Positions 1,073 to 36,806 of a DNA stretch of 64,000 nucleotides are shown piece after piece (within the stretch, counting starts at the first letter, position 1; each line of letters starts with the position of its first letter). The notes below the pieces were generated by a model. The model did not search any database, was not told where the DNA came from, and worked only from the letters and a program-made list of their open reading frames with translations. Both the position numbers and the translations under genes were made by a program. Source of the stretch: an uncultured Syntrophorhabdus sp. (lineage in GTDB: Bacteria > Desulfobacterota > BSN033 > UBA1163). The stretch covers positions 31,384 to 95,383 of the forward strand of contig CAYZFX010000005.1 in assembly GCA_964477935.1 (NCBI GenBank), written 5' to 3'.

Positions 1073-2488
1073 TCATTTGCCGATGCAGAATTGGTCGAAG
1101 ATCCTATTCAAAACATCTTCGGGGGTCGTCTCTCCAACCATCTCTCCGAGGCTGTTGAGTGCAGAACGGATCTCGAGGGCGATGAACTCGTAAGAGATTC
1201 CTTCTTCTAACCCTTTTACCGTTCGCAGAAGGCTCTCTTTTACATCCGTAAAAATATTTTTATGCCTCAGATTTGCCACGACCAAATGGTCGGGGGAGAC
1301 CCTGACTTTTTGCTGGATAATGAGATCGAAGATAGTCTTTTTTAATTCCTCTATATTTATTTTTTTCAAGGCAGAGATCGAAACAACGGGATCATCGGGA
1401 AGCCAATCCCTTACCTCTTCTATCGAAATTCTCTGAGGGAGATCGTTCTTGTTGAGGACAACCACCTTCTTCTTTTTTCTAATCTCTCCTGCAATTTCGA
1501 TATCATCCTCATCGAGCATCCTGCTCCCATCAAGGACGAGAAGGAGAAGGTCGGCGCTTTCGGCCCTTTCTTTTGCCCGGAGAACCCCCTCTTTTTCGAT
1601 TGAATTCCCGGTCTTTCTCAACCCTGCAGTATCCATAAACCTGACAGGAATACCATGGATATTCAAGACTTCTTCAATCACGTCACGGGTGGTTCCTGGA
1701 ATTGGGGTAACGATCGCCCGTTCCTGTTTTGTTAATATATTGAGAAGGCTCGATTTTCCCACGTTAGTCTTTCCGATGATAGCGCAAGAAATCCCTTCTT
1801 TGAAGATCTTCCCCTCTTCATAAGTGGATATCCATTCCTCAATTTTCTTAATCGTTTCGAGGAGGTCTTGCCTCATCTCCCCTATCCGTAATTCATCAAC
1901 CACTTCATCGGGAAAATCGATGTGCGCCTCTATCAGGGCCAGATAGTTCAATAACTTCTCCTTTAGTGCGCTCACCTCCCTGAAGAGCATGCCCTTCAAC
2001 TGTTGAGTTGCAATCTCGATCCCTTCTTTCGTTTTCGCCTTGATGAGATCGATGACCGCCTCCGCCTGGGTGAGGTCGATCCGACCATTGAGAAATGCCC
2101 TTTTCGTGAACTCTCCTGGCTGCGCCAGCCTTGCCCCATGAGCGATCACCAGCTCCAATACTTTCTGCAGAATGAGATATCCTCCATGGCAATGTATCTC
2201 CGCGATATCTTCCCTTGTGTAAGTCTTAGGTGCCTTCATCAGAACGGCCAAGACCTCATCGACTGTGTGACCGGTCCCGGGATCAACAATATGGCCGTAA
2301 TAAAAACGATGGGAAACAAAATAGTGAATTTTTTTTAGGGGATTGAAAAGTTTTTTGAGGATTGGCTCGGCGAGCTGGCCACTGATACGAACAATCCCTA
2401 TACCGCTCTCACCTAAGGGGGTCGAAATGGCTGCAATCGTCTCATCGGCAAGAGGGGAGATGTTTACAGAAGATTCAATCGGACACAA
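1073..2488 (-). CDS. mnmE: tRNA modification GTPase MnmE (TrmE)
   Basis: 471 aa with G-domain motifs (GKTNVGKSSLLN, DTAGLR) and the family-typical C-terminal CIGK. It sits in the conserved rpmH-rnpA-yidD-yidC-jag-mnmE order. Confidence 0.9.
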   Translation of the reverse strand: MCPIESSVNISPLADETIAAISTPLGESGIGIVRISGQLAEPILKKLFNPLKKIHYFVSHRFYYGHIVDPGTGHTVDEVLAVLMKAPKTYTREDIAEIHCHGGYLILQKVLELVIAHGARLAQPGEFTKRAFLNGRIDLTQAEAVIDLIKAKTKEGIEIATQQLKGMLFREVSALKEKLLNYLALIEAHIDFPDEVVDELRIGEMRQDLLETIKKIEEWISTYEEGKIFKEGISCAIIGKTNVGKSSLLNILTKQERAIVTPIPGTTRDVIEEVLNIHGIPVRFMDTAGLRKTGNSIEKEGVLRAKERAESADLLLLVLDGSRMLDEDDIEIAGEIRKKKKVVVLNKNDLPQRISIEEVRDWLPDDPVVSISALKKINIEELKKTIFDLIIQQKVRVSPDHLVVANLRHKNIFTDVKESLLRTVKGLEEGISYEFIALEIRSALNSLGEMVGETTPEDVLNRIFDQFCIGK

Positions 2489-2966
2489 CGGTTTTACTCT
2501 TCGGGAGAATCCTGATCCTCTTCATCTCTCCATCCCCCAAACTCAACGTTTCGAGGACTGGATCATCCTTTAAGGCGAGATGGACAATTCTTCGATCATG
2601 GGGGTTGTATGGCCCGATATCTATCGATTTCCCACTCCTTTTTACCCTCTCACCAAGACGGAGGGCCATCTTCGTGAGTGAATCGATCCTCCTCGCTTTG
2701 TACCCATTCACATCGATGTAAACTCTCATCTTCTCATCGATTTTTTTGTTAACCATCCTATTGAAAAGGAATTGAAGGGAATCGAGCGTCCGGCCGTGTT
2801 TTCCGATCAGGAGGGACTCCCTACCCCCTTTAAGGTTTAAGAAGAGCCCTTCCTCACCATGGGAGGCCTCCACATCCGCCTCCACACCCATGAAGCCCAG
2901 GAGGTCTTTAATCATCTTTTTGGTTGCATCGATCGATTCTTCTTTCAAAACCTGGCCTCTTACCAT
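2475..2966 (-). CDS. jag: Jag/KhpB (EloR) RNA-binding protein with KH and R3H domains
   Basis: 163 aa, with a KH-like GKHGRTLDSLQFL segment and an R3H-like C-terminus. It lies immediately downstream of yidC, as in most bacteria. Confidence 0.8.
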   Translation of the reverse strand: MVRGQVLKEESIDATKKMIKDLLGFMGVEADVEASHGEEGLFLNLKGGRESLLIGKHGRTLDSLQFLFNRMVNKKIDEKMRVYIDVNGYKARRIDSLTKMALRLGERVKRSGKSIDIGPYNPHDRRIVHLALKDDPVLETLSLGDGEMKRIRILPKSKTVVSD

Positions 2967-4678
2967 CTCTTATTCATATAATACTGGTGTGCAATCGATA
3001 AAACATTGGTAACCATCCAGTAGAGGACAAGCCCTGAGGGAAAGTTGAGGAAGAGGAAAGTGAACATAATCGGCATCAGCATAAATAATCTCGCCTGCGC
3101 CGGATCTGCAGAGGTGGGGGTCATCTTCTGCTGGATGACCATGGTGGCACCCATCAGAATCGGTGTGATATAGATGGGATCCTTGGCAGAGAGATCTTTG
3201 ATCCAGAGGATAAAAGGGGCATGCCTCAGCTCGATCGAATTGTGTAAAGCGTTGTAAAGTGCAATAAAGACAGGTATTTGAATCAGCATCGGGAGGCAGC
3301 CACTCATAGGATTTATCCTTCTCCTCTTGTAGAGGAGCATGATCTCCTGCTGGAGCCTCGCCTTGTCATTCTTAAATTGTTCCCTCAACCGGTTCATTTC
3401 CGGCTGGACCTTCTGCATCTCCTTCATCGACTTCATACTGATCTGTGTTAAAGGAAGGAAGATGATCTTGATCAGAATGCTCAGGATGATGATGTCGATT
3501 CCGAAATTCTTAGTGACGTTATGAGTCAACTTTAAGACCCAGAGAAGGGGTTTTGCCACGATCGTAAAGAAGCCGTAATCGATCAGGCCCTCTGCACCCA
3601 CGCCAAGTTCTGTTAGAGGGTCTGTCAATTTAGGCCCGAGGTAGATTCGGTAACTCTTTGCAATCGCCCCTCTAGGTGGAACTGAAACAGGGGGTGAGGC
3701 CAATTGAGCTGTTAAGAGGTTATTTTCATTTCCCTTTATTTTCAACTGGATGTTCTTTTCTAATGTAGATGGGACCAGAACAGCGGCGAAGTATTCGCCA
3801 GCAAAGGCGTACCAACGGATGTTACCCTGTTCTGCCATCTCGAAGGGTTCCAGTCGTCTCTTCGGTGCTCCGCAGCCTGGTGTGCACCCTGCTGCACCCG
3901 TTCCTCCAAGATCCTTCCTTTCGATCTTCTGATCTTTCATATAGACGTATTTTAGGCCAAAATCTTTATTATCATAATCGGCAAACTTCTCCAACTCAAC
4001 CTTCCCGACCCATTCGAGGCCGAACTGGGTCACCATCTCATTCTGAGTCGGGTTCTGAATCTCGATGTGGATTTCGATGTGATCTCTCTCCGAATAAAAA
4101 TTGTACTTCTTTAATAATTTCAATCCATTACCTAATTCTTTAGAAAAGGTAACCTCCCCTTTCTCGCCCTGTTTCAGGATCTGGAGCCTCTCCTTGTCCA
4201 CCTCCCATAAGGTTGATTCTGTAGAGGGCTGAACGATGAGGCCGAGGGGAAGCCCTTCCTCTTCGGTCGTATTGACGAGATCGAGGGGTCTTGGTTTTTG
4301 AGGCTCTTTACCCTTTCCCCCGAACAGTTCACTAAAAAAATTGGTGAGCGTCAGGGTGATTGAGGATTCTTCGACTCTATCTTTATACCTTTTCAGTTTA
4401 AAATGTTTCAGCCTCGCATCCTCATTCGTAAAGGTGGCGGTATAATTCATCGTTTCAACGACGACATCTTTTTTGGCCACGACCCTGGGTTTGGTAGTAG
4501 CTTGTTTCGGGACGTTGGGGGTTAATATCTCCTTTTTCTCCTGGGGGACGGCCTCTTCCTTTTTGACCTCTTTATGAGGAGGTGGGGCTGGTGGAAAGAA
4601 CTTCGACTGAATAATACCCCATCCGAATATGACTAAAAATGTCAAGATGATAGCCAATAAAGCCCTTTTATCCATCAT
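2960..4678 (-). CDS. yidC: Membrane protein insertase YidC
   Basis: 572 aa with an N-terminal TM segment, a large periplasmic domain and a C-terminal 5-TM core (…LYWMVTNVLSIAHQYYMNKRW). Confidence 0.9.
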   Translation of the reverse strand: MMDKRALLAIILTFLVIFGWGIIQSKFFPPAPPPHKEVKKEEAVPQEKKEILTPNVPKQATTKPRVVAKKDVVVETMNYTATFTNEDARLKHFKLKRYKDRVEESSITLTLTNFFSELFGGKGKEPQKPRPLDLVNTTEEEGLPLGLIVQPSTESTLWEVDKERLQILKQGEKGEVTFSKELGNGLKLLKKYNFYSERDHIEIHIEIQNPTQNEMVTQFGLEWVGKVELEKFADYDNKDFGLKYVYMKDQKIERKDLGGTGAAGCTPGCGAPKRRLEPFEMAEQGNIRWYAFAGEYFAAVLVPSTLEKNIQLKIKGNENNLLTAQLASPPVSVPPRGAIAKSYRIYLGPKLTDPLTELGVGAEGLIDYGFFTIVAKPLLWVLKLTHNVTKNFGIDIIILSILIKIIFLPLTQISMKSMKEMQKVQPEMNRLREQFKNDKARLQQEIMLLYKRRRINPMSGCLPMLIQIPVFIALYNALHNSIELRHAPFILWIKDLSAKDPIYITPILMGATMVIQQKMTPTSADPAQARLFMLMPIMFTFLFLNFPSGLVLYWMVTNVLSIAHQYYMNKRW

Positions 4679-4702
4679 CGATCTCTCTTTTCTTCCTTCT
4701 TC

Positions 4703-4939
4703 TCAATTGCTCTCGGATTCAACAGGGTCATAGCCTCCGGGATTAAAGGGATGACACCTAATCAGCCTCTTCAGAGTGAGCCATCCCCCATGGATTACCC
4801 CATGGCGTTCGATCGCCTCGATGGCATAGCAGGAACAAGACGGATAAAACCGACAGCTGGGACCGAAGGCCATAGAGAGGGTCTTCTGGTAGGTCTGAAG
4901 CAGTAAGATGAGCATCTCTCTTAGTGCTTTTCCCAACAT
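4703..4939 (-). CDS. yidD: Membrane protein insertion efficiency factor YidD
   Basis: 78 aa with the conserved [19 protein letters not shown] motif. Confidence 0.85.
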
Positions 4940-5277
4940 GATTGAATCAAGACCTCCTTCAGTTCCTCTTCAACCTCTTGGTAGGAGGCGGGCAGACTCC
5001 CCTTTTTCACCAGAATAACCAGATCGAGTGACCCAATGATCAGATGTTTGTTCAGGCGAAAGAATTCCCGGAGGTATCGCTTCATCCGGTTGCGGATGCT
5101 GGCCGGTCCAACCTCTCTCTTTACGACAACGCCCAGCCGATGATAGTCTCTTCGGTTTTCGTGGAGAAAGAGGAGATAGTGTTTGGTTGAAAGCCTCCTG
5201 CCAGATCTCATCACCCTTCGGAAATCCTCGGGAAGGGCAATCCTCTCCTTTCGAGTGAACCTAAACGATCCTTTCAC
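4921..5277 (-). CDS. rnpA: RNase P protein component RnpA (GTG start overlapping the rpmH stop)
   Basis: 118 aa, basic, RnpA-like (FRFTRKERI...[10 protein letters not shown]), positioned between rpmH and yidD. Confidence 0.85.
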
Positions 5278-5412
5278 TAAACGGTTAGCCTCTTCCTGCC
5301 TTTGGCTCTCCTCCGCTTAAGGACTTTTCGGCCACTGCGGGTGGACATCCTCTCCAGGAAGCCGTGAGTCCTTTTCCGTCTGATCGTGCTCGGTTGGTAG
5401 GTTCTCTTCATC
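5277..5412 (-). CDS. rpmH: 50S ribosomal protein L34
   Basis: This gene is below the 60-aa cutoff of the ORF track. Manual reverse-complement translation gives [44 protein letters not shown], a textbook L34 sequence. Confidence 0.85.
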
Positions 5413-5458
5413 TCAATCCTCTTTCGAGACGTGGCTTGTTTTTTGAAATAATTAAACT

Positions 5459-5487
5459 TTTTGAGTAAACCATATTTCTACTCAAAA
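5459..5487. promoter_or_regulatory. Perfect 9-bp inverted repeat TTTTGAGTA-N11-TACTCAAAA in the divergent rpmH/gyrA promoter region
   Basis: Read directly from sequence. A TTGACA (5511-5516) plus an AT-rich -10-like element lies about 25 nt downstream, facing gyrA. Confidence 0.3.
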
Positions 5488-5571
5488 GTCAAGATCAGGG
5501 CGGGTTTCTGTTGACAGGGGGCCTGATTTATATTAAGTTTTTCAACAAAATGGATCCCTTCTGAGGCACCG

Positions 5572-7998
5572 ATGAACGAGTATCAGACTGCCATTCCCAT
5601 CAACATCGAAGACGAGATGAGACGCTCCTACATGGACTATGCCATGAGCGTCATCATCGGCCGGGCCCTTCCTGATGTCCGGGATGGGCTCAAACCGGTT
5701 CATCGCCGGATCCTCTACGCGATGAACGAACTGAACAATGACTGGGATAAACCCTATAAGAAGTCAGCCAGGATCGTCGGCGACGTCATCGGTAAATACC
5801 ATCCCCATGGAGATATGGCTGTCTATGATGCCATCGTCAGGATGGCCCAAGACTTCTCGCTCCGATACCCCCTGATCGACGGCCAGGGGAATTTCGGGTC
5901 GGTTGACGGCGACCCGCCAGCTGCGATGCGATATACCGAAATACGAATGGCGAAATTGGCTTCCGAACTCCTCGCTGACATCGATAAAGAGACGGTCGAT
6001 TTCGTTCCAAATTACGACGAATCGTTGTTGGAACCTTCGGTCCTCCCCTCTAAATTTCCAAACCTCGTTGTGAACGGTTCCTCAGGGATCGCGGTAGGTA
6101 TGGCCACCAACATCCCCCCTCACAATCTCAATGAGGTCATCGAGGGCCTGATCGCCCTCATTGAGAACCCGGAAATTACCCCTGAGGAGTTGATGTCGCA
6201 CATCCCTGGTCCCGACTTCCCAACGGGCGGATTCATCTATGGCCGGGAGGGAATCCGGTCCGCCTACGAAACCGGAAAGGGGGTCATCCAGCTTCGAGCC
6301 AAGGCTTTCATCGAGAGGGACAAGAAAGGAGAGCGGGAGAGCATCATCGTCACCGAACTCCCTTACCAGACCAATAAGGCTAAGCTGATCGAAAGGATCG
6401 CTGAACTCATTCAGGAGAAGGTGATCGAGGGGATTTCTGCCGTTCGGGATGAATCGGACCGGGAGGGGATGCGGGTGGTCATCGAGCTGAAGCGGAATGA
6501 GGTCCCCGAAGTCATCCTGAACCAGCTCTACAAGAATACCCAGATGCAGACCTCCTTCGGGATCATCCTCCTGGCGATCCATCAGAATCAACCCAAGCTC
6601 CTCTCCCTCAAGGAGATGCTCCACCTCTTCCTTCAGCACCGAAAGGAGGTGGTGACCCGGAGGTCTCTCTTTGAGCTGCGAAGGGCAGAGTCCCGGGCCC
6701 ACATCCTCGAAGGCCTCAAGAAAGCCATCGATCAGATCGACGCGGTCATCGCCACGATCAAGGCCTCCAAGACCCCCAAGGAGGCCAAAGAGCGGTTGAT
6801 GGACCGCTTTGAGCTTTCCGAAGAACAGGCCCAGGCCATTCTCGACATGAGGCTTCAGCGGCTCACCAACTTAGAACAACGGAAGATCGTCGAAGAATAT
6901 GAGGAGACGATCAAGTTGATCAATCGCCTTAAGGATATCCTGGCCAGTGAGCGCCTGATGCTCAATGTGATCAAAGAAGAGCTCCTTTCAATTAAAGCCT
7001 CTTACGGGGACCCGAGGCATACGGAGATTGTGGACGTTGCTCCGGAGATCCGGATCGAAGACCTGATCGCTGAAGAGGACATGGTGGTAACAATCACCCA
7101 TTCGGGTTACATCAAGCGAAATCCCATCAGTCTCTATCGGAGTCAGCACCGCGGCGGAAAGGGGAAAGTGGGGATCAACGTCAAGGAGGAGGATTTTGTC
7201 GAAGATCTCTTCATCGCCTCCACCCATGACTACCTCCTCTTCTTCACCGATGCGGGAAAGATCTACTGGAAGAAGGTCCATGAAATTCCTCAGGCGGGCC
7301 GTCTGACCCGCGGGAAGGCCATCGTCAATCTTCTCAATCTCGGCCCGGAGGAGAAGGTGACGACGATCCTCTCCCTCAAGGATTTCTCTCCCGGAAAGTT
7401 TATCACCTTCGTCACGAAAAATGGAAAGATCAAGAAGACCGCCCTCGAGGCTTACAGCAATCCCCGGTCGGGTGGGATCATCGCCCTTGGCCTCGACGAG
7501 GGGGACGAACTCATCTCCACCAAGCTGACCGATGGCGACCGTCACCTCTTCATCGGAACGAAACTTGGAAAGGCCATCCACTTCCCGGAGAATCAGGTGC
7601 GGGAGATGGGCCGGACCGCAAAGGGCATCCGTGGCATTCGCCTGACCCGGGGAGATGAGGTCGTCGCCATGGAGGTCGTCCTTCCCCACACCTCCCTATT
7701 GACGGTCACAGAAAACGGTTATGGGAAACGATCGTTGGCCTCGGAATACCGAATTCAAAACAGGGGAGGCAGTGGTATCTATACAGTGAAGAGGACGAAA
7801 AAGACGGGAGATGTCGTGGGCATCAAGGCCATCATCGATGAGGATGATCTGATGATCATCTCCAACAAAGGGAGGATCATCCGGTTAAGGGCTGCAGATA
7901 TTCCTGTCCAGGGAAGAAACACCCAAGGCGTTCGCCTCATCACCCTCGAAGAATCGGAACGGGTGGTGGCGGTCGCCAGGCTGGCCGAGAAGGATTAA
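5572..7998 (+). CDS. gyrA: DNA gyrase subunit A
   Basis: 808 aa. The N-terminus matches GyrA (…[31 protein letters not shown]…), a GyrA box ([10 protein letters not shown]) is present, and a C-terminal beta-pinwheel follows. Confidence 0.9.
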
Positions 7999-8054
7999 AA
8001 AAGACTTGAATTTTTTTTTAAATAGGGTTAAGTGTATAGAGGTCCGAAAAAAAA

Positions 8055-8120
8055 CATCATCCACATACCAATTCCCCTCTGAGACTTAAAAATCTTTTTT
8101 CCACATTTGTGGAAACATTG
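8055..8120. promoter_or_regulatory. Candidate oriC/dnaA-promoter DnaA-box cluster in the AT-rich gyrA-dnaA spacer
   Basis: TCATCCACA (8057-8065) and TTTTCCACA (8097-8105) each match TTATCCACA at 8 of 9 positions. TGTGGAAAC (8108-8116) is the reverse complement of GTTTCCACA, a 7 of 9 match. Flanking A/T tracts run through 8010-8160. Confidence 0.4.
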
Positions 8121-8204
8121 TGAAAAAAGCTTTATAACCTATTTAAATGTATAGATTTTTTCTTTTTGGGTCTTTCCTGCCCATTTCATAAAGTTCTTCT
8201 CCAT

Positions 8205-9575
8205 ATGCCTGAAACCCTCGCTGTCGAGCTACAAGAAAATCTCTGGACGAAGGTCTCTGCCATTCTCAAAGAGAGAATCGGTTCTCAGAATTTTGACATC
8301 TGGATCAAGCCCCTTCAAATCCGATCGATGGATGGGGAAAGGGTCGAAGTGGAGGTCCCCAATCGCTTCTTCAGGGAATGGATTCAAGAGCACTATTCGG
8401 TTCATATTAAAGAGGCCTTTTCCATCTTGACTCAGAGGTCCTTCTCTCTTCTTTTTCGAATTAAGAATGAATCGGCTTCTTCGGAGAGGGGAAACAGGTT
8501 CCTCGCCCCTTCTGAAAATAGCCTCCCCTCTATCTTCCACCCGCTCAAATCTCCTTTCAATCCGAAATATACCTTTGAAAATTTTGTAGTAGGGGCAAGC
8601 AACCAATTTGCCAATGCGGCCTGCCTCGCTGTGGCCAATTTACCGGCTAAAAACTATAATCCTCTCTTCATCTATGGTGGGGTAGGGCTCGGAAAGACCC
8701 ACCTCCTCCACGCCATCGGAAACCACATTCTTCAGCACCGCATTGTCCCCGATCCGAAGAAGATCTGCTATACCTCAGCAGAGGAGTTCACTAATGAGAT
8801 GATTAATTCCATCCGCTTCGAAAAGATGGAGGAGTTTAGGAATAAGTATCGACGGATGGATATCCTGATGATCGATGATATCCAATTTATTGCCGGGAAA
8901 GAGAGGACCCAGGCTGAATTCTTCCATACCTTTAATTCCCTCTATGAGGCCAGAAAGCAGATCGTTGTCACGAGCGATAAGTTTCCGAAAGACATCCCAA
9001 ACTTTGAGGAACGCCTCCGATCCCGTTTTGAATGGGGACTGATTGCGGATATCCAGCCCCCGGATATCGAAACGAAGGTGGCGATCCTTCGGAAGAAGGC
9101 AGAGATCGAGAGGATCCATCTCCCCAATGATGTGGCCTTCTTTTTGGCCTCTCAGATCGACTCCAATATCCGAATGCTGGAGGGATGCCTCATTCGAATC
9201 GGGGCCTTTGCTTCCCTTTCCAGAACGGAGATCGACCTCCAAATGGCTAAGGAGGTGTTGAAGAATATCATCAAACCCAAAGAGGAGTCGGTCTCCATCG
9301 AGGTCATCCAAAAGGTGGTGGCCCACCATTTCAACTTGAAGATATCCGATTTCAAAGCCAAACGAAAAAATAAGGGGTATGTCTTACCCCGTCAGATAGC
9401 GATCTATCTCACTCGCAAATTGACCAACCTTTCCCTGATCGAAATTGGGGAGAAATTTGGAGGAAAGGACCATTCGACCGTCCTCCATTCTATTAAAAAG
9501 GTGGAGGAGCGGATGGGGAAAGATCCCTCTTTCAAAGAGAAGATCGACCATCTCATAAGTCGAATTCAGTCCTAA
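8205..9575 (+). CDS. dnaA: Chromosomal replication initiator DnaA
   Basis: AAA+ Walker A (GGVGLGKTHLLHA), sensor motifs and a C-terminal DNA-binding domain (…VLPRQIAIYLTRKLTNLSLIEIGEKFGGKDHSTVLHS…). The start was chosen at MPETLAV; the ORF itself extends back to 8166. Confidence 0.9.
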   Translation: MPETLAVELQENLWTKVSAILKERIGSQNFDIWIKPLQIRSMDGERVEVEVPNRFFREWIQEHYSVHIKEAFSILTQRSFSLLFRIKNESASSERGNRFLAPSENSLPSIFHPLKSPFNPKYTFENFVVGASNQFANAACLAVANLPAKNYNPLFIYGGVGLGKTHLLHAIGNHILQHRIVPDPKKICYTSAEEFTNEMINSIRFEKMEEFRNKYRRMDILMIDDIQFIAGKERTQAEFFHTFNSLYEARKQIVVTSDKFPKDIPNFEERLRSRFEWGLIADIQPPDIETKVAILRKKAEIERIHLPNDVAFFLASQIDSNIRMLEGCLIRIGAFASLSRTEIDLQMAKEVLKNIIKPKEESVSIEVIQKVVAHHFNLKISDFKAKRKNKGYVLPRQIAIYLTRKLTNLSLIEIGEKFGGKDHSTVLHSIKKVEERMGKDPSFKEKIDHLISRIQS

Positions 9576-9781
9576 AGATTGTTGAGATCCTGTTGAATAA
9601 AGGAAGGTCGAAATAACAGGGGTTGAACGATCCACTCTTTCATCCTTTTTTTAAAAAGGAGAGGTTGACAAAATCCTTAACAAGATTCACTCATTCTCTA
9701 TCCTTTCTTCATTTCCACAGGAAGAGACGATGAGGATGAAAGAAGAGATTTTTGAAGACGGAGAAGTCAGAGGAGGAAGAT

Positions 9782-13382
<3,601 letters not shown>

Positions 13383-30339: not shown

Positions 30340-30627
30340 ATGAGCCAAAAACTTTACATAGGAAATCTCCCGTTTTCAGCCTCGGAAGAGGAGGTGAGAA
30401 CCCTCTTCTCGGAAGCGGGCACGGTCGAATCTGTCAGGATTATCACCGATGCCTATACAGGGCGCTCCAGGGGATTCGGTTTTGTGGAGATGGCCTCCAG
30501 AGAGGAAGGGGCTAAGGCGATTTCCCTTTTTAACGGTAAGGTCTTTATGGAACGGTCCCTCGTAGTGAATGAGGCAAAACCTCAGAAACGAAGAGAGGGG
30601 GCCTTTAAGGGGAGGCGGAAGAGTTAG
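30340..30627 (+). CDS. RRM-type glycine-tailed RNA-binding protein
   Basis: 95 aa with RNP-2 (LYIGNL) and RNP-1 (RGFGFVEM) motifs. Confidence 0.85.
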   Translation: MSQKLYIGNLPFSASEEEVRTLFSEAGTVESVRIITDAYTGRSRGFGFVEMASREEGAKAISLFNGKVFMERSLVVNEAKPQKRREGAFKGRRKS

Positions 30628-30639
30628 TCCGAAAGACGG

Positions 30640-30852
30640 GTGAGAAGGGAGAGCCCTTTGGAAGTAAAAGTTCAGAACGATCAGATCGAACATGCGATTA
30701 AGTCCTTGAAGCGTCAGCTCGCCAGGGATGGCATCCTCAAAGAGTTGAAGAAGAGAAGGGCCTATGAAAAGCCCTCGGTGAAGAAGAAGAGGAAACAACA
30801 AGAGGCGAGAAGGAGAAGGCAGAAGGCAGCCCGCCGCCGGTTTTCCCGATAG
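30640..30852 (+). CDS. rpsU: 30S ribosomal protein S21
   Basis: 70-aa highly basic protein, …IEHAIKSLKRQLARDGILKELKKRRAYEKPSVKKKRK…. An alternative TTG start at 30658 lies after an AAGGGAGAG Shine-Dalgarno. Confidence 0.75.
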   Translation: MRRESPLEVKVQNDQIEHAIKSLKRQLARDGILKELKKRRAYEKPSVKKKRKQQEARRRRQKAARRRFSR

Positions 30853-30864
30853 GAAGTCACGACC

Positions 30865-31689
30865 TTAGGATGGGTCCACCTCCTCCGTAAGACCATAAAA
30901 GTTTTTCTTATAAGAATCCCTCAGGAGCGTCAGTGACTCTTTGATCTCGTTGAAGGACTGCTTTAACGCCTCATACCTCTGTTCCAATTCCGTCTTTTGG
31001 GCAAGAACCTCCTCGAGACGGATGTGGAGTTCCCGGTTCTCCTCTCTGAAATAGGAGAGCTCCCGTTCGTTCATCCTTCCTTTGATCTTCACCAGCTCAT
31101 TCTGCTCGAGCCGACCTTCCAGCTCACGAATTTGGGCCAAGGCCTCTTCCTTTTCGAGGAGGGCTCTGGAAAGGTTCTCTTTCGTGGCCCTCAACTCCTG
31201 TTGAACCTCACGGATTTTCCGGAGGGCCTCTTCGTTCTCCTCTCTTAGATAGGTCGTCTCGGCGTGGATTGCTTTGAATTTCTGAAGTTCCCCCCTCTCC
31301 TCCTCCAATGCGCGCCTCAAGGCCTGATTCTCCTGGCTGAGCTGACGGACGGTCTTCTGCTGGGCCCTCAGGTCCAGCTCCAGAGCCTTCTGGGTCCGGG
31401 TCGAAACGAGAAGCTGGGTGTGGAGGTCCTCGATCAAACGGAGCACATCCAGCTCCCCCCCGGAGAGAGGGTCGGAGGCCGGTGACGGTTCAGCGGAAGC
31501 CTCCTTCTCAAAGAGGGGCTTGGGCGAATCCATCTCTCGGCGTTCCTCGGACGAGACCTCCTCAAGGGAAAGGAAGCCTTTGGAATCTTCCTGAGTAGGC
31601 GATTCCTCCATCTTCTTCATCCTCGGCATCTTCTCTGCGACGCTGCGATCAAACCCATCGGCCGTCATGACCTGCGTCTTGATCCTCAT
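30865..31689 (-). CDS. Coiled-coil protein; last gene of the RHH-HEAT-ParA operon
   Basis: 274 aa with an acidic/Ser-Pro-rich N-terminal region followed by about 180 aa of heptad-rich, Glu/Leu/Arg/Lys-rich sequence (ELQKFKAIHAETTYLREENEEALRKIREVQQELRATKENL…). Confidence 0.55.
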   Translation of the reverse strand: MRIKTQVMTADGFDRSVAEKMPRMKKMEESPTQEDSKGFLSLEEVSSEERREMDSPKPLFEKEASAEPSPASDPLSGGELDVLRLIEDLHTQLLVSTRTQKALELDLRAQQKTVRQLSQENQALRRALEEERGELQKFKAIHAETTYLREENEEALRKIREVQQELRATKENLSRALLEKEEALAQIRELEGRLEQNELVKIKGRMNERELSYFREENRELHIRLEEVLAQKTELEQRYEALKQSFNEIKESLTLLRDSYKKNFYGLTEEVDPS

Positions 31690-31745
31690 CTCCTGGTTCC
31701 TCCTCTATCTTCTACCAAAGATGGGGATTGGGTCTTCCTCTCCCC

Positions 31746-32084
31746 TCACTTGAGCCTCTCCCTCATATACTCTTCCATGGTCTTTAACATCTCGATGATC
31801 TTCTCCACTTCTGCCTTGACCTTGAGGATCTCCTCGAGGACACGGTTGGCCCTTTTCAGGTCGTACTCCAGAGCCGAGCGCACGGTCAGGGAGGAGCGGA
31901 GCTCTGAATAGAGCGTATGGATGCGATCGGCGATCTCTTCCTTCCGGGAGTCTTCGGCCAATCGCTTGATCGGGGAGATCCCCTTGGGGTCTGAGACATC
32001 CCAGGGTTTTTCGACCGGGTCTTTATTCAGCGTGTTGGGGAATTTTTGAGCAACGTTGTTGGTGAACTCATCGGTCATGTCCAT
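31746..32084 (-). CDS. Small coiled-coil protein
   Basis: 112 aa with a predicted C-terminal helical region (…LEYDLKRANRVLEEILKVKAEVEKIIEMLKTMEEYMRERLK). Its start overlaps the ParA-like stop by 17 nt. Confidence 0.5.
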   Translation of the reverse strand: MDMTDEFTNNVAQKFPNTLNKDPVEKPWDVSDPKGISPIKRLAEDSRKEEIADRIHTLYSELRSSLTVRSALEYDLKRANRVLEEILKVKAEVEKIIEMLKTMEEYMRERLK

Positions 32085-33099
32085 TTCCTTTCGCCCAGAA
32101 AATTTCTTCGATCAAATTTTCGATATCCTCAGCCCCTTTGGAGGTCTGATCGAAGAGGAAGATGGGCTTCCCTTGGCTGGTAGCCTCTGCGATCTTCGTA
32201 TCCTGTCGCACGACCGTGTTGAGAAGATACTTCTTATAATGGGTCTCCAAGGCCTTTTTTGAGCGCCTACAGATTCGATGGGAGTCATTGTAACGGTTCA
32301 AAAAGATGAAGATGTTCTCGAAGACGAAGGAGAAGTCTTCTTCGATGGTGGAAAGGGTTTCAAAGAGGATCTTCAGACCGTGATACGAGAGAAAATCGGC
32401 CAGGACCGGGATGAGGAGGTCATTGGAGGCGAGGATGGCATTGAGGTTCAGTAGACCGATACTCGGAGAGGCATCCATTACGATCACATCGTAACTCTTT
32501 TCCAGTGGGCTGAGAAGCCGCTTCAGCCGGAACTCCCTGGAGTTCATCGAGAAGAGCGAAAGCTCCACGGGCGAGAGGTTCAGGTTCGAAGGGAGGATGT
32601 CGAGCGTGGAGAGATCGGTTTTCACGATAATCTTTTCGATCTCTTCCCTTTCGACCAAAGCGTGGTATAGGGTCTTGGGATAGTGTTCGTTGTTCAGACC
32701 CAGACACTGGGTGAGGTGTCCCTGGGGATCGAGATCGATCAGGAGGACCCTGAATCCCATCTGGGCCAGACGGAACCCGTAGGAAGCCGACAGAGAACTC
32801 TTTCCGGTTCCCCCTTTGAAGTTGAGAAAGAGCTGTTTCCGGATGGAGGAGATGGGAAGGGGAAGGGAGAGGTATTGACGGTAGGTGATCACATCGTCCG
32901 GTTTATAATAACGCTCTTTTCGTTCATTTCTCTTCGGAGGAGGTAGGAGACCCTGAGATTCTTTTTCGAGAAGCTCCGCCTTGGAGATTCCGAGGAGTTT
33001 TGCAAACACTTGGGCCGAATAGACCATATCGCCCAGGATCTGGGCCTTGGGTTGGGCGGGTGTGACGGGTGGAAGGGACATCAATTTTTCAGATTGCAT
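32068..33099 (-). CDS. ParA/MinD-family P-loop ATPase with an N-terminal ~95-aa extension containing a putative MerR/excisionase-like HTH
   Basis: Deviant Walker A FLNFKGGTGKSSLS and Walker A' LLIDLDPQGHLT. The N-terminal segment is …MVYSAQVFAKLLGISKAELLEKE…. Confidence 0.8.
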   Translation of the reverse strand: MQSEKLMSLPPVTPAQPKAQILGDMVYSAQVFAKLLGISKAELLEKESQGLLPPPKRNERKERYYKPDDVITYRQYLSLPLPISSIRKQLFLNFKGGTGKSSLSASYGFRLAQMGFRVLLIDLDPQGHLTQCLGLNNEHYPKTLYHALVEREEIEKIIVKTDLSTLDILPSNLNLSPVELSLFSMNSREFRLKRLLSPLEKSYDVIVMDASPSIGLLNLNAILASNDLLIPVLADFLSYHGLKILFETLSTIEEDFSFVFENIFIFLNRYNDSHRICRRSKKALETHYKKYLLNTVVRQDTKIAEATSQGKPIFLFDQTSKGAEDIENLIEEIFWAKGNGHDR

Positions 33100-33100
33100 C

Positions 33101-33850
33101 TTATCCCTTAGGGCAAAGGGAGGTCTTCGTTAGGGGTCTCTCGAGCATTCGATCCAATTCTTCCCTCGCCCAATGGCGGACCTCCGGATCGGAATCGGTC
33201 ATTGCCCCGAGCAACCGTTCCTCACCTTCCTCGGGGTAGAGAGTCAGGAGAGAGGAGAGAGCTGCTTTTCTCACTCTTGGATCTTTATCCTTCGACATCT
33301 CGATGAGGATCGGAAAGGCGCCCTCGAGCGGATTCCATCCCAGAAGGATTGCCAATTTCCTCCTCAACCACGGGGATTCATCGTTCAAGAACTGCATGAG
33401 AAGATGGATGTCCATCTTTTCTTTAAACCTAAACATCCCTTTCAAGGCCACCATTCTAACCGTCGGGTCAGGGTCCTTCAGGTGTTTTTTGAGAAAAGGG
33501 GTGACGGTGGAATTGTCGAACATGATCAGCGTGGAGAGGGCTTCTGCCCTCACCCCTCCGTCTGGATCGGAGAGAATTTCTTGAAGGAGAGGGAGGGTGA
33601 TCGACAGGTGGGATTTTTCGAGATAGTACCTAACCGCAAGGACCCTCACTTTTGGATCAGGGTGTTTGAGATCAGCTTTTGCCTGTTTCAACCTCTCCCG
33701 GACCGATCGAGACTCCTTTGCCGGTTGATTCGCAGAGGAAGAAGAGCACTCTTGAGACTTCGAAAGATCTGTAGAGGGAGACCGGGAAACCCAGTGGCCA
33801 TCCAGAGGTTCGTTCGATTTCAGATAGATCAGTCGGAAACGGTCAGTCAA
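33101..33850 (-). CDS. HEAT-repeat (PBS-lyase-type) protein
   Basis: 249 aa with about six repeats of DPDxxVRxxAxxxL (DPKVRVLAV, DPDGGVRAEAL, DPDPTVRMVAL, DESPWLRRKLA, DKDPRVRKAAL, DSDPEVRHWA). Confidence 0.7.
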   Translation of the reverse strand: MTDRFRLIYLKSNEPLDGHWVSRSPSTDLSKSQECSSSSANQPAKESRSVRERLKQAKADLKHPDPKVRVLAVRYYLEKSHLSITLPLLQEILSDPDGGVRAEALSTLIMFDNSTVTPFLKKHLKDPDPTVRMVALKGMFRFKEKMDIHLLMQFLNDESPWLRRKLAILLGWNPLEGAFPILIEMSKDKDPRVRKAALSSLLTLYPEEGEERLLGAMTDSDPEVRHWAREELDRMLERPLTKTSLCPKG

Positions 33851-34057
33851 ATGGATTTCTCCTCGGTTCCGGTTTCTGATGGGTGCGTATCCTCTTTGAA
33901 GTTTAATCCGCCTTTGAAATCGAACTTTAGCTGTTCCGAATACTTATCAAGAAGCATATCAAGGGCCTCCCTCACATAGACCGCCTGGGGTACCTTTGTT
34001 TTGTCGGATAGTCTCTTAAGGGCCTCCACCTGATCGCTGTTGATGAAGATCGTTCTT
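33847..34057 (-). CDS. Ribbon-helix-helix (CopG/ParG-like) DNA-binding protein; first gene of the operon
   Basis: About 70 aa from a TTG start 5 nt after an AAGGAGG Shine-Dalgarno, (M)SPRKVARTIFINSDQVEALKRLSDKTKVPQAVYVREALDMLLDKY…. The upstream part of the listed ORF lies in AT-rich DNA and is unlikely to be coding. Confidence 0.5.
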
Positions 34058-34393
34058 GCAACCTTTCTCGGAGACAACGAAACCTCCTTGAATAGTTTTA
34101 AATACAATATAATATATATAATAGATATATTGTCAAGCACCAATTTGAATCAATCCCAAACCCCCGCAGAAGTCATAAAGCCAAAACGGGTAGGGCCAAT
34201 TTCACTATCCTTTCGAGAAACGAACAGAGAAGAATGACGGCGATGAAACATGGCGATCTGGCATCTCATCTGCTCCGTTTATTTCCTTAAAGAAGGAGTG
34301 AGCCCTCGACGGGATTATGATCGTTACGGTCATAACATGATCTTTCAGAACGATACTCCTTTGGTAAAGATTTCTTTGAGGACCTTTAGTCAT

Positions 34394-34691: not shown

Positions 34692-35804
34692 ATGAAAAAG
34701 AATTCGATCCGGATAGCCATCGTAGGCGTTGGAAACTGTGCCAGTGCTCTTATTCAAGGGATTGAATTCTACAGGGATCTTTCTCGAAAGAATCCAAAAT
34801 TTGAGCCGCTGGGTTTGATGCACTTAGACCTCGGAGGATATAAACCCTGGGATATTGAAGTCGGTGCGGCCTTCGATGTTGATCGAAGGAAAGTGGGGAA
34901 ACCCCTGAGAGAGGCCATCTTCGCCAAGCCCAATTGCACGCGTATCTTCTTCTCTCAGTTCAACGATTCCGGCGTCACGGTCTCCATGGGCGAACCGCTC
35001 GATGGCATTTCAGAACATATGAAGGACTATCCCGAAGACCGAACATTCCTGCTGGCGAACGAGAAGCCCTGTAATGTGGAGAAGGTCCTGAAGGAGTCAG
35101 GGGTGGAGATCCTCCTCAATTACCTTCCGGTCGGTTCGGATCAGGCTACTCAGTTCTATGCGGAGGCCTGTCTCAATACAGGGGTGAGTTTCATCAACTG
35201 CATGCCCAGTTTCATCGTCTCGGATCCCAATTGGGCGAAACGGTTCGAGGAGAAGGGGATCCCGGCCGTGGGTGACGATGTGAAATCCCAGATGGGGGCG
35301 ACCATCATCCATCGGGCCCTGGCCAAACTCTTCGAGGACCGGGGGGTGAAACTCGACCGGACCTACCAGATCAATACCGGTGGAAATACCGATTTTCTCA
35401 ACATGCTCAACCGGAGCCGGCTGAAGAACAAGCGGATTTCTAAAACCGAAGCCATCCAGTCCCAGCTCGGATATCCTCTCGAACCTGAGAACATCCACAT
35501 CGGCCCTTCTGACTACGTCCCCTGGCAGAACGACAACAAGGTCTGCTTTCTCCGGATGGAAGGAAGAGGGTTCGGAGAGGTTCCCTTGAATCTCGAATTG
35601 AGGCTCTCTGTCGAAGACTCCCCGAACAGCGGTGGGATCACCATCGACGCCATCCGGTGCTGTAAGATCGCACGCAACCGAGGGATCGGCGGCCCTTTGA
35701 TCTCCATCTCTGCCTATGCGATGAAACACCCTCCCCTCCAGTTTCCCGACCATGAGGCCAAGGTCATGGTCGAGGAGTTCATTGCTGGCCAGAGGGAGAG
35801 GTAA
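34692..35804 (+). CDS. ino1: myo-Inositol-1-phosphate synthase (archaeal/bacterial short type)
   Basis: 370 aa with an N-terminal Rossmann segment IRIAIVGVGNCASALIQG and MIPS motifs including …YQINTGGNTDFLNMLN…. Confidence 0.85.
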   Translation: MKKNSIRIAIVGVGNCASALIQGIEFYRDLSRKNPKFEPLGLMHLDLGGYKPWDIEVGAAFDVDRRKVGKPLREAIFAKPNCTRIFFSQFNDSGVTVSMGEPLDGISEHMKDYPEDRTFLLANEKPCNVEKVLKESGVEILLNYLPVGSDQATQFYAEACLNTGVSFINCMPSFIVSDPNWAKRFEEKGIPAVGDDVKSQMGATIIHRALAKLFEDRGVKLDRTYQINTGGNTDFLNMLNRSRLKNKRISKTEAIQSQLGYPLEPENIHIGPSDYVPWQNDNKVCFLRMEGRGFGEVPLNLELRLSVEDSPNSGGITIDAIRCCKIARNRGIGGPLISISAYAMKHPPLQFPDHEAKVMVEEFIAGQRER

Positions 35805-36806
35805 TCCTTTGATCTTTTTGAAATGTTCCACAAACTTTCTTAAATCCTTTCCCAATCGCTCGTAGAGCTCTTCGAAGTGGTGGAGGTGGCCGAGGTATCG
35901 TCGGTGGGCAAGTATCACCGCGTTGTTAAGCACCTTCTTTTCAAACCCCTTATAACATTCCGTTCTGAACTCCCCCTGCATTTTGAGGAACTCTTCTCGG
36001 AGCGACTCGAAGAGTCTCTCACGGCCTTTCAGTTTCTCCTCCCTCGACAAGGGCTGAGCATAGAATTCAGATAGCTGCCGATACGCCCCCTCGATCCAAT
36101 TGGCAAAGCGCAGGTCATCTTCCTGCAAATGGATGGCCAGGCTGACCTCCTTCGAATTCGGACCATATTTCTCACGCAGAAATTCAATGGCCCCCTTGTT
36201 GCCGATGAAGGTGGCCAACTGTTCATTCAGTTCGGTCTCTCCTTTGAAATGGATCGTGGCATGGACCATCTCGTGGAGGATGATGTTGACCAGGGCGGGC
36301 TCCTCCCAGAGGAGCATCGTCGAGAAGATAGGATCCGTCAGCCATCCGAGGGTGCTATAGGCGGCCGCCATCTGAAGGTAGGTGTCGAACCCCTGTCGCT
36401 CCATCTTTCTCTTCTCTTTTAGAGCGGCCTTCAGGGTGAAGAGGCTTTTGTAAGTCACCCTTCCAATGACGGGAAATTTCCACGAATAGGCCTGGAGACG
36501 GTCTTTTTCGCTGGCCGTCAGGAGGTATAGGGTGAGGCCTTTTGCCTCGAAAAATTTGGTATAGTTCTTCGTCTCCTTTAAGCCCAACCTCTTTTCCCCG
36601 TAGTCCTTCACCTCTAAGATGAGCCGGATCTTCTTCGCGGCCTCCTCCCCAAGCACTTCTTCGAGCAGGACCTCTTCGACCGGAACGCTCCGAAAGGTGA
36701 CGAAGGACTGATGCCATCCTAAGTGGGAAAGGTAGAGAAGGTTTCCACAACCCGTGAGGAGGGAGAGGAAAGAGAAAAGGAATAAGAGCCTCAGCCTAAG
36801 AATCAT
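35097..36806 (-). CDS. Putative zinc aminopeptidase lipoprotein (HExxH; COG4324-like). The 3' end is doubtful because the ORF lacks a stop until 35097.
   Basis: N-terminal lipoprotein signal …LLTGCGN, then an HEMVH zinc motif followed by a conserved E (…NEQLAT…). Recognisable protein-like sequence ends near 35820 (…FVEHFKKIKG). The remaining ~230 codons run antisense through ino1 and look like a translated-antisense artefact. Confidence 0.5.
   Translation of the reverse strand: MILRLRLLFLFSFLSLLTGCGNLLYLSHLGWHQSFVTFRSVPVEEVLLEEVLGEEAAKKIRLILEVKDYGEKRLGLKETKNYTKFFEAKGLTLYLLTASEKDRLQAYSWKFPVIGRVTYKSLFTLKAALKEKRKMERQGFDTYLQMAAAYSTLGWLTDPIFSTMLLWEEPALVNIILHEMVHATIHFKGETELNEQLATFIGNKGAIEFLREKYGPNSKEVSLAIHLQEDDLRFANWIEGAYRQLSEFYAQPLSREEKLKGRERLFESLREEFLKMQGEFRTECYKGFEKKVLNNAVILAHRRYLGHLHHFEELYERLGKDLRKFVEHFKKIKGLPLPLASNELLDHDLGLMVGKLEGRVFHRIGRDGDQRAADPSVACDLTAPDGVDGDPTAVRGVFDREPQFEIQGNLSEPSSFHPEKADLVVVLPGDVVRRADVDVLRFERISELGLDGFGFRNPLVLQPAPVEHVEKIGISTGIDLVGPVEFHPPVLEEFGQGPMDDGRPHLGFHIVTHGRDPLLLEPFRPIGIRDDETGHAVDETHPCIETGLRIELSSLIRTDRKVIEEDLHP

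Follow-up and report, generated by a model that had tools for sequence, protein, structure and literature searches.

A five-gene operon with a PomZ-clade ParA ATPase in an uncultured Syntrophorhabdus sp. is a probable divergent relative of myxobacterial PomXYZ

Introduction

What does a ParA-type ATPase position when its operon contains no ParB gene, and its partners are a ribbon-helix-helix (RHH) protein, a HEAT-repeat protein and two coiled-coil proteins? This question is raised by a locus on the minus strand of contig CAYZFX010000005.1, from an uncultured Syntrophorhabdus sp., within a stretch of 64,000 nucleotides (64 kb) that is referred to here as the window. An earlier note on this DNA had described the locus as a non-canonical ParA positioning module with PomXYZ as its first analogue. 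The analysis presented below supports that description: the ATPase falls in the PomZ clade, both coiled-coil proteins begin with a PomX-type peptide and the HEAT gene occupies the position of pomY. The five genes therefore probably represent a divergent relative of myxobacterial PomXYZ, a ParA-driven machine that rides on the nucleoid; the homology is well supported, and from it we infer the function.

In Myxococcus xanthus the division site is positioned by PomX, PomY and PomZ (MXAN_0636, MXAN_0634 and MXAN_0635, respectively). The system is a rare positive regulator that places the FtsZ ring, and its components are a scaffold that organises itself, a condensate, and a ParA ATPase on which two activators act (PMC13170346, PMC7993993, PMC10307791). 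PomXYZ has been described as conserved in myxobacteria (PMC13170346, PMC7993993, PMC10307791), and in the literature consulted that mentions PomZ none is reported outside that group.

A conserved five-gene operon

Five consecutive open reading frames (ORFs) were listed on the minus strand between 30865 and 34143 of the window. The operon is read as 30865–34077 together with its promoter, and its features are as follows.

34078..34150, minus strand: promoter and putative operator, a sigma-70-like site with conserved repeats; T-rich upstream tract, -35 box TTGACA (34136–34131), 16-nt spacer, -10 box TATTAT (34114–34109)
about 34096–34125, minus strand: AT-rich TATT(G/A)TAT repeats that cover the -10 box and the start region
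34089–34083, minus strand: ribosome-binding site AAGGAGG of the RHH gene
33847..34077, minus strand: RHH protein, 76 residues, TTG start; RHH_3, an Arc/CopG-like ribbon-helix-helix
33101..33850, minus strand: HEAT-repeat protein, 249 residues, TTG start; HEAT_2, in the pomY position
32068..33099, minus strand: PomZ-like ParA/MinD ATPase, 343 residues; AAA_31/ParA
31746..32084, minus strand: cc112, a coiled-coil protein of 110–112 residues, probable start ATG 32078; candidate short PomX-like paralogue, from its N-terminal peptide
30865..31689, minus strand: cc274, a coiled-coil protein of 274 residues; PomX-like scaffold and putative ATPase activator, from its N-terminal peptide and architecture

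The RHH and HEAT genes overlap by 4 nt and the ParA and cc112 genes by 11–17 nt, and the HEAT and ParA genes are separated by 1 nt. The overlaps or very short gaps claimed in the earlier note hold for these three junctions but not for cc112/cc274, where the gap is 56 nt. A sigma-70-like promoter agreeing with the consensus at 11 of 12 positions lies directly 5' of the RHH gene and is the sole such site in the 3.9 kb between 30500 and 34400. Because the frames overlap or abut and are served by this single promoter, the five genes are taken as one operon.

Two gene starts were revised. The RHH gene begins at TTG 34077 rather than at 34057, since this codon lies 5 nt downstream of AAGGAGG and is kept in most related loci; the protein has 76 residues in place of the approximately 70 given previously, and a longer mechanical ORF of 98 residues crosses the promoter. 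The shorter coiled-coil protein, originally given as 112 residues, probably starts at ATG 32078 and has 110.

Related loci were collected by scanning one genome per species, which gave 68 loci, and the window proteins were compared with these by tblastn. The order RHH-HEAT-ParA-cc112-cc274 was found unchanged in 37 of 43 related loci, the 37 being from uncultured Syntrophales-like genomes, and HEAT-ParA-cc112-cc274 in 41. Identities to the window proteins are 56–80% for RHH, 47–71% for HEAT, 75–88% for ParA, 64–79% for cc112 and 43–62% for cc274. The five genes are thus a conserved operon and co-occur in related genomes, and their treatment as a unit in the earlier note stands. The ATPase is represented by more than 100 database clusters at 77–89% identity, all from uncultured Thermodesulfobacteriota, 'Deltaproteobacteria' or Syntrophaceae. 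The operon was also found in a reduced form in about 20 metagenome-assembled genomes of the Desulfomonilia type, some of them labelled Bacteriovoracaceae, which have HEAT-ParA-coiled coil without RHH or cc112 and a ParA 56–61% identical to that of the window.

The ATPase and its relationship to PomZ

The ATPase matched AAA_31/ParA (E 1e-46) and contains the deviant Walker A motif KGGTGKS at residues 95–101 (32797–32817); it is the only ATPase with a deviant Walker A in the window. A family search revealed a MerR-type helix-turn-helix (HTH) at residues 27–70 (E 1e-4), and in the AlphaFold2 model (pLDDT, or predicted local distance difference test, 92; predicted template modelling score, pTM, 0.89) residues 27–76 (32872–33021) form a winged helix packed on the ParA core. 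Both elements had been recognised before, although the N-terminal extension measures about 86–90 residues and not about 95.

For comparison, PomXYZ loci were retrieved by back-translating part of the published PomX activating peptide, MKKAFEQNVSRAKPRLRLGALT (PMC7993993), to a degenerate DNA pattern, which gave 15 high-GC metagenomic loci. A gene with a Walker A motif (pomZ) directly precedes pomX in every retrieved locus that reaches far enough upstream, a long HEAT gene with the PomY C-terminal signature precedes pomZ, and the order pomY-pomZ-pomX was read in the metagenomic myxobacterial loci L071, L073, L077 and L078. Two of the retrieved PomZ sequences carry the M. xanthus residue at all 25 published positions (25/25 at the published numbering; residues from PMC13170346), and were therefore accepted as authentic PomZ.

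Alignment of the window ATPase with PomZ by blastp gave 47% identity over residues 27–334 (E 4e-105, 302 bits), and the identity to PomZ ranges over 47–49% along the full length, including the N-terminal winged helix, where PTYSAKQVAEMLGVSAKEL aligns with VYSAQVFAKLLGISKAEL. Ordinary ParAs are 30–32% identical and align in the ATPase domain alone; the best solved ParA structure scored 140 bits, again only in that domain, the best plasmid ParA 172 bits at 34.5% identity, and McdA 48 bits. A step in score was also seen among 1.84 billion representative proteins, with about 30 clusters at 170–309 bits, many of which match the N-terminal region as well, followed by ordinary ParAs at about 140–165 bits.

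In a neighbour-joining tree built from 237 columns of the ATPase domain with 200 bootstraps, PomZ grouped with the window and Desulfomonilia families, one protein from Riflebacteria and a few unplaced clusters. This clade has 100% bootstrap support, and within it the window and Desulfomonilia families are sisters (93%). On these sequence comparisons the window ATPase is a PomZ-clade ParA and not an ordinary Soj, and its family is a sister lineage that is not nested among the myxobacterial PomZ proteins. Three other proteins of the PomZ clade (P0126, P0127 and P0131) carry a lysine-rich disordered region and a coiled coil fused to the ATPase in place of the winged helix, and may be adaptor-ATPase fusions.

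The residues through which PomZ contacts its partners were modelled in a 2026 mBio paper (PMC13170346). In the cleft for PomY helix alpha5 the window ATPase is identical at 5 of 8 positions (L173, L180, L216, L219, D255) and conservatively substituted at the other 3, and in the cleft for the PomX peptide 6 of 13 are identical and 3 conservative. Ordinary ParAs deviate at most of these positions. The ATPase also conserves KGGTGKS, D124 and K302, the last being the counterpart of the DNA-binding lysine K268 of PomZ, so that it shares with PomZ its clade, this lysine and most of the modelled pocket residues.

Foldseek comparison of the model found the core to be closest to chromosomal Soj/ParA (template modelling score, TMt, up to 0.93), and only type Ia ParAs (P1 ParA and V. 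cholerae ParA2) aligned over the full length (TMq 0.73–0.75, 17–18% identity). Like these proteins and F SopA, the window ATPase is a large ParA with an N-terminal winged helix packed on the core. Unlike the type Ia systems, the locus contains neither a ParB/HTH centromere-binding partner gene nor centromere repeats, the identity is low, the core is nearer to chromosomal Soj, and the locus is chromosomal and near the origin rather than on a plasmid. A plasmid origin of the locus was likewise rejected, given the identity to the best plasmid ParA and the housekeeping genes on its flanks. The best NCBIfam match of the ATPase is plasmid RepA, far below the cut-off.

The coiled-coil proteins

Neither cc112 nor cc274 belongs to a family in Pfam, NCBIfam or PHROGs, and weak matches to SMC/Rad50 were rejected as coiled-coil noise. 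Among the 369 homologues of cc274 none has a Pfam-based function. The 456 homologues of cc112 are nearly all unnamed or 'hypothetical', a few being labelled FlaC by JGI, and the 120 listed are 69–100% identical. In both proteins conservation is highest at the N-terminus.

The AlphaFold2 model of cc274 contains a short helix in the N-terminal peptide (residues 9–26; 31612–31665), a disordered linker at residues 23–73 and a single helix of 193 residues (77–269; 30883–31461). The linker is acidic, with a net charge of -6, in agreement with the acidic N-terminal region described earlier. PomX has a disordered region at residues 27–182 and a coiled coil at 222–401 (PMC7993993); the model thus gives good support to a PomX-like architecture for cc274, comprising peptide, disordered linker and coiled coil. 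The linker of PomX is Ala/Pro-rich and that of cc274 is acidic and rich in Glu, Ser and Pro.

The cc274 family peptide reads ..ADGFD[RT][SN]VAEKMPK[MI][RK]K. In cc274 itself, ADGFDRSVAEKMPRMKK aligns with the published PomX peptide KKAFEQNVSRAKPRLRL such that F, [DE], V, [SA], P, [RK] and [LM] coincide. The resulting docking motif, F-[DE]-x-x-V-[SA]-x-x-x-P-[RK]-[LM], is common to PomX, cc274, the single coiled-coil protein of the Desulfomonilia type, the neighbour of a Riflebacteria ATPase and a protein of locus L085. It is present in the latter two (MNNRFDRTLPKKIPKL in the Riflebacteria locus L084, MKSAFNKNVSKRKPRT in L085) although these loci were fetched through the ATPase alone. A loose regular expression of the motif gave 75 matches in 1.83 million six-frame residues, all of them N-terminal in a coiled-coil gene beside a PomZ-like ATPase, and zero off-target matches in the same residues.

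In M. xanthus, K13 and R15 of PomX are essential for activation of PomZ (PMC7993993). The counterpart of R15 is R23 in cc274, a lysine in most homologues, so that cc274 keeps the basic residue along with the motif and the three-part design of PomX. In cc112 the counterpart is N17, and the net charge of the N-terminal peptide is -4 as against +4 in cc274. The cc112 family peptide is M[ST]DEFTNNVAQKFPNTLNKExIE[KR]PWDV, also written M[ST]DEFTNNVAQKFPNT..PWDV; it is invariant, a variable linker comes after it, and the C-terminal helix is conserved.

The Desulfomonilia coiled-coil protein has the peptide MKDGFD[RK]SVAE[RK]MPKMQKRRPNRPWNVDP, in which the cc274-type and cc112-type halves are both present. 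This suggests, at the level of sequence, that a single ancestral adaptor gave rise to cc112 and cc274 as paralogues, and profile comparison with hhalign provides partial support (cc274 against the Desulfomonilia protein, E 1.8e-17; cc112 against the cc274 family, E 4.5e-5; cc112 against the Desulfomonilia protein, E 9e-5, at the N-terminus). The short protein is not universal within the Syntrophales-like clade, since in locus L008 (6001–7926) the cc274 homologue starts about 55 nt past the end of the ATPase match with no cc112 between them.

A possible exchange of charges was noticed between ATPase and peptide. At the pocket positions where PomZ has the acidic E248 and E256, the Syntrophales-like family has lysines, and its partner peptide is acidic at positions where PomX is basic (K3 to D, R11 to E). 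This apparent swap, which involves residues 282, 290, 305 and 309 of the window ParA, could be co-variation; the Desulfomonilia family does not follow it cleanly.

The HEAT-repeat protein

The second gene was confirmed as encoding a HEAT-repeat protein (Pfam HEAT_2, E 5e-27). It consists of a conserved N-terminal peptide, MTDRFRLIYLKS, a variable linker at residues 13–50 and HEAT repeats at about 51–235. Comparison with the HEAT region of PomY gave 32% identity over 140 residues (blastp, E 3e-10) and an hhalign probability of 96% (E 1.6e-9). The HEAT gene lies directly upstream of the ATPase gene in the Syntrophales-like, Desulfomonilia-type, L085 and myxobacterial loci, so that the order HEAT-ParA-(cc112)-cc274 corresponds to pomY-pomZ-pomX.

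PomY, of 682 residues, contains an N-terminal coiled coil, 6–7 HEAT repeats, a disordered region with the PomZ activator helix alpha5 and a C-terminal winged helix; its coiled coil is required for condensates and implicated in stimulating Z-ring formation (PMC13170346, PMC7993993, PMC10307791). The counterpart in the window, at 249 residues, is a HEAT-only protein.

The RHH protein and the promoter

The RHH protein matched Pfam RHH_3 (E 5e-14) and an Arc-like repressor in PHROGs (E 5e-5), as the earlier note had expected of its fold; a search against solved structures gave no significant match. Its N-terminal tail is about 7 residues long. The gene is present in the 37 Syntrophales-like loci given above; the Desulfomonilia-type, myxobacterial, Riflebacteria and L085 versions lack it.

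The promoter was compared across 35 distinct upstream regions of related loci, anchored on the -35 box. A block consisting of a T-tract, TTGACA, 8–11 nt and then TATTGTATT(A/G)TATTGTATTT, which may also be written TTTTTTCTTGACA-N8-11-TATTGTATTATATTGTATTT, is kept in 32 of the 35, far above the surrounding DNA. The repeats in this block overlap the -10 box and the start region, and we infer that they act as the operator. The repeat motif was sought across the rest of the 64 kb as a possible centromere array and was not found, and a general search for repeats in the intergenic region yielded nothing beyond short pairs at chance level. The RHH protein is thus probably an autorepressor of the operon acting through the promoter repeats, as its sequence and the conserved promoter indicate and as had been suggested earlier as one of its possible roles. 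Since no other branch of the family has the RHH gene, autorepression is preferred to a centromere role.

Genomic setting

The window includes the region of the replication origin. The genes mnmE, jag (KH/R3H), yidC, gyrA, dnaA (8166–9575), dnaN and gyrB occupy 1073–13382, the cumulative GC-skew minimum lies at 8–10 kb, and DnaA-box-like sites are found at 8057 and 8097, just upstream of dnaA. The position of gyrA between yidC and dnaA is an unusual order. The Pom-like operon lies about 22–26 kb from dnaA and is oriented counter to replication.

A perfect 16-bp canonical parS site, TGTTTCACGTGAAACA, is present at 1057–1072, abutting the mnmE stop codon. The window contains no parAB genes and the operon no ParB gene; from the perfect parS, a separate canonical ParB/ParABS system is very likely in this genome. 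The PomZ-like ATPase is therefore taken as an additional ParA, as is PomZ in M. xanthus, where PomXYZ likewise coexists with a canonical ParABS. The earlier note had named clustering with ordinary Soj/ParA, together with a ParB elsewhere, as evidence against a positioning module. The ATPase does not group with Soj, and the likely ParB elsewhere supports an extra, non-segregation role of this ATPase rather than speaking against it. From the canonical Soj/Spo0J systems it differs in having an N-terminal domain, in lying outside the Soj group and in lacking a ParB in its operon.

The flanks of the operon consist of housekeeping genes, and the earlier statement that they include no cargo gene proved correct. 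The genes for S21 (rpsU) and an RRM-type RNA-binding protein (30340–30852, plus strand) converge on the operon, and this pairing is conserved in related genomes; the S21 stop codon lies 12 nt from that of cc274, and between the converging units no clear intrinsic terminator could be recognised. Downstream synteny (rpsU, the RRM protein and NfnAB-like genes) is conserved and the upstream side is variable. In many loci a 2-kb segment separates cc274 from rpsU. It was considered as a sixth operon gene and rejected, as it encodes an unrelated radical-SAM/B12 protein that is absent here. This protein, found at 8334–10022 of locus L021 and at the same site in most Syntrophales-like loci, is a B12-binding radical-SAM protein of 562 residues with a STAS-like C-terminus.

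No ftsZ or other division gene was found in the window, and scans of it for tRNA and Rfam families gave nothing. A putative aminopeptidase ORF at 35097–36806 (minus strand; PF10023 at residues 25–336) continues for about 230 further stop-free codons antisense to the myo-inositol-1-phosphate synthase gene (34692–35804, plus strand). The extension could mean that a stop codon was lost, that there is a frameshift or an error of assembly, or that the antisense frame is free of stops by chance.

Related loci in other lineages

Two loci outside the groups described above show other arrangements. In a Candidatus Riflebacteria genome (GCA_015233155.1; L084, 4074–6086) a PomZ-clade ATPase, 44–49% identical, lies downstream of a gene for a 289-residue coiled-coil protein that starts with MNNRFDRTLPKKIPKL. 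This is a PomX-like pair in reversed order and in another phylum; there is no adjacent HEAT gene, and a convergent gene for a 527-residue, repeat-rich coiled-coil protein lies downstream. In the second locus (GCA_964585305.1, GC 30%; L086, 5001–6699) an HTH-ParA that is 43% identical and falls outside the PomZ clade is followed by a 219-residue protein. In the latter the N-terminus, SKEFSGFQKSAPANLP...AWDIDLSP, is similar to the cc112 peptide and the C-terminus is hydrophobic and resembles a membrane anchor, a sequence which suggests that membrane-tethered variants of the adaptor exist.

Discussion

The comparisons above point to a Pom-like machine, for which the following mechanism is proposed. 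ATP-bound ParA dimers would coat the nucleoid non-specifically, and cc274 would self-assemble by means of its coiled coil; the resulting scaffold would itself be the cargo and would be joined by the HEAT protein. By analogy with PomX, the N-terminal peptide of cc274 would dock on the DNA-bound dimers and stimulate ATP hydrolysis, and its coiled coil would polymerise, so that the assembly is tethered and moved to mid-nucleoid by a flux or diffusion-ratchet mechanism. There it would most likely mark a site, for which the division site or FtsZ is the leading candidate from the example of PomXYZ. The short protein cc112 keeps the docking motif but lacks the R15-equivalent basic residue and is acidic, and may be a second, probably non-activating or modulating adaptor. 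Binding of the RHH protein to the TATTGTAT repeats overlapping the promoter would set the dose of the operon, and chromosome segregation would be left to the canonical ParABS with its parS near dnaA.

Relative to PomXYZ, the host is an uncultured Syntrophales-like member of the Thermodesulfobacteriota and not of the Myxococcota, and the locus contains an additional 110-residue PomX-like paralogue between the ATPase and scaffold genes, an additional RHH gene and the promoter repeats. The comparison with McdAB and PpfA/TlpT, also made in the earlier note, holds only as an analogy. The logic is similar, in that a DNA-bound ParA-type ATPase and an adaptor with an N-terminal activating region, disorder and a coiled coil move a large assembly, but there is no specific sequence relationship, as the McdA score indicates, and no carboxysome or chemotaxis genes lie nearby. 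The earlier note had also asked whether the proteins belong to an already characterised complex. This is half the case: the system appears to be a divergent relative of PomXYZ, yet its proteins and lineage are uncharacterised. For the same reason it is less new in kind than the word 'uncharacterised' had implied.

Several observations weigh against this interpretation. Generic HEAT families score about as well as PomY against the HEAT protein, and the equivalence to PomY therefore rests on gene position. Three parts of PomY are also absent from the HEAT protein, namely the coiled coil, the alpha5-containing disordered region and the winged-helix domain at the C-terminus; a search of all four partner proteins for a motif resembling alpha5 found none, yet the alpha5 cleft of the ATPase is conserved. 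It may be speculated that this cleft is filled by the N-terminal peptide of the HEAT protein or by the PWDV half of cc112. In the PomX-peptide pocket 4 of 13 residues are altered in charge (E248K, E256K, Q271E, E275Q). The essential K13 of PomX is not conserved, corresponding to M21 in cc274 with a basic K20 one position earlier, and beyond the N-terminal peptide neither cc274 nor cc112 gave a significant match to PomX (blastp E > 0.8; hhalign P 0.02–0.04). Because the similarity ends with the peptide, homology of the scaffold part to PomX is not claimed, and of the profile comparisons proposed earlier those of the cc274 and cc112 families yielded no significant match to PomX or PomY beyond the N-terminus. 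The tree is a distance tree on one domain that leaves the branching order within the PomZ clade unresolved. Lastly, the locus has no link to FtsZ, its carriers are all uncultured, and the system is known from sequence alone.

The assignment of the division site or FtsZ as target, made by analogy, is the weakest step, and the chances that it or another cargo is served are roughly even. The best surviving alternative, which we consider rather unlikely, is that the machinery is Pom-like but its cargo is not the divisome. The machine could then position some other large assembly, for example a granule for storage, a cluster of cytoplasmic proteins, an apparatus for conjugation or secretion, or a domain of the chromosome, with the HEAT protein as the cargo-specific adaptor. 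The PomY coiled coil, with its roles in condensates and Z-ring stimulation, is missing here; ParA/MinD systems of similar design position many different cargos; and the membrane-anchor-like end of the L086 adaptor indicates that cargo or location can vary in the wider family. Against this, no cargo genes were found in the flanks here or in related loci, where the neighbours are housekeeping genes and the upstream side varies, and the closest characterised relative positions the division site. A separate cargo gene is in any case not needed by a Pom-like machine, because the PomXYZ scaffold is itself the cargo.

A type Ib-like DNA partition system, comparable to ParF-ParG of TP228 or delta-omega of pSM19035, appears improbable. 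The RHH protein would then be the centromere-binding partner of ParA, the origin-proximal region would be segregated, and the HEAT and coiled-coil proteins would be accessory. Type Ib systems likewise pair an RHH protein with a ParA-family ATPase, short repeats of the RHH-binding type lie at the promoter as for omega and ParG, whose operator doubles as centromere, the operon is close to dnaA, and the best NCBIfam match, far below the cut-off as it is, is a plasmid protein. The type Ib RHH protein, however, is an essential centromere-binding and ATPase-activating partner with a long N-terminal activating tail, whereas here the tail is short and the wider family can do without the RHH gene, which is missing from four versions in which ATPase and coiled coil persist. 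The conserved N-terminal peptides sit instead on the coiled-coil and HEAT proteins. Moreover, only a single repeat cluster occurs in the 64 kb, the perfect parS indicates that an ordinary ParABS serves the origin, and the ATPase is a large, HTH-bearing protein of the PomZ clade and not a small type Ib ParA, with only distant similarity to the best plasmid ParA.

The N-terminal HTH of type Ia ParAs such as P1 ParA and SopA represses their own operon, and the ATPase model aligns over its full length with type Ia proteins, but that the genes are merely adjacent, with the ParA winged helix and the RHH protein serving mainly as transcription factors and independent roles for the coiled-coil and HEAT proteins, is very improbable given the strict order and overlapping or abutting frames across 37–41 loci in two classes, the extremely conserved N-terminal peptides on three partners and the conserved partner pockets on the ATPase.

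Beyond the window, the Pom-like reading of the operon can be extended to a broader proposal, which we put forward tentatively as possible though not the likelier outcome. Rather than having been invented by myxobacteria, Pom-like systems may be an old and widespread family across the former Deltaproteobacteria and beyond (Syntrophales-like bacteria, Desulfomonilia, Riflebacteria and unplaced lineages), with a minimal core of a winged-helix ParA and a coiled-coil adaptor bearing an F-D-x-x-V...P-K-M docking peptide, often accompanied by a HEAT protein. The Syntrophales-like version would then have gained a further layer of regulation, in which two adaptors, an activating cc274 and a naturally 'activation-dead' decoy, cc112, compete for one ATPase and the RHH protein is the dose controller.

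The analysis shows that one system unites about 370–460 database proteins whose present labels are 'hypothetical', 'chromosome segregation ATPase', 'SbcCD' or 'FlaC'. The peptide motif and the definition of the clade allow Pom-like systems to be found in any genome, and natural deletions (PomY reduced to HEAT repeats only) and duplications (two PomX-like peptides, one without the key basic residue) test which parts of the machine are essential. For the syntrophic uncultured Thermodesulfobacteriota, whose cell biology is essentially unknown, the operon provides a testable candidate for division-site placement. If the broader proposal is true, the small HEAT-only PomY would define a minimal functional module, and slow-growing anaerobes would generally rely on a self-organising scaffold to position the division site at mid-nucleoid.

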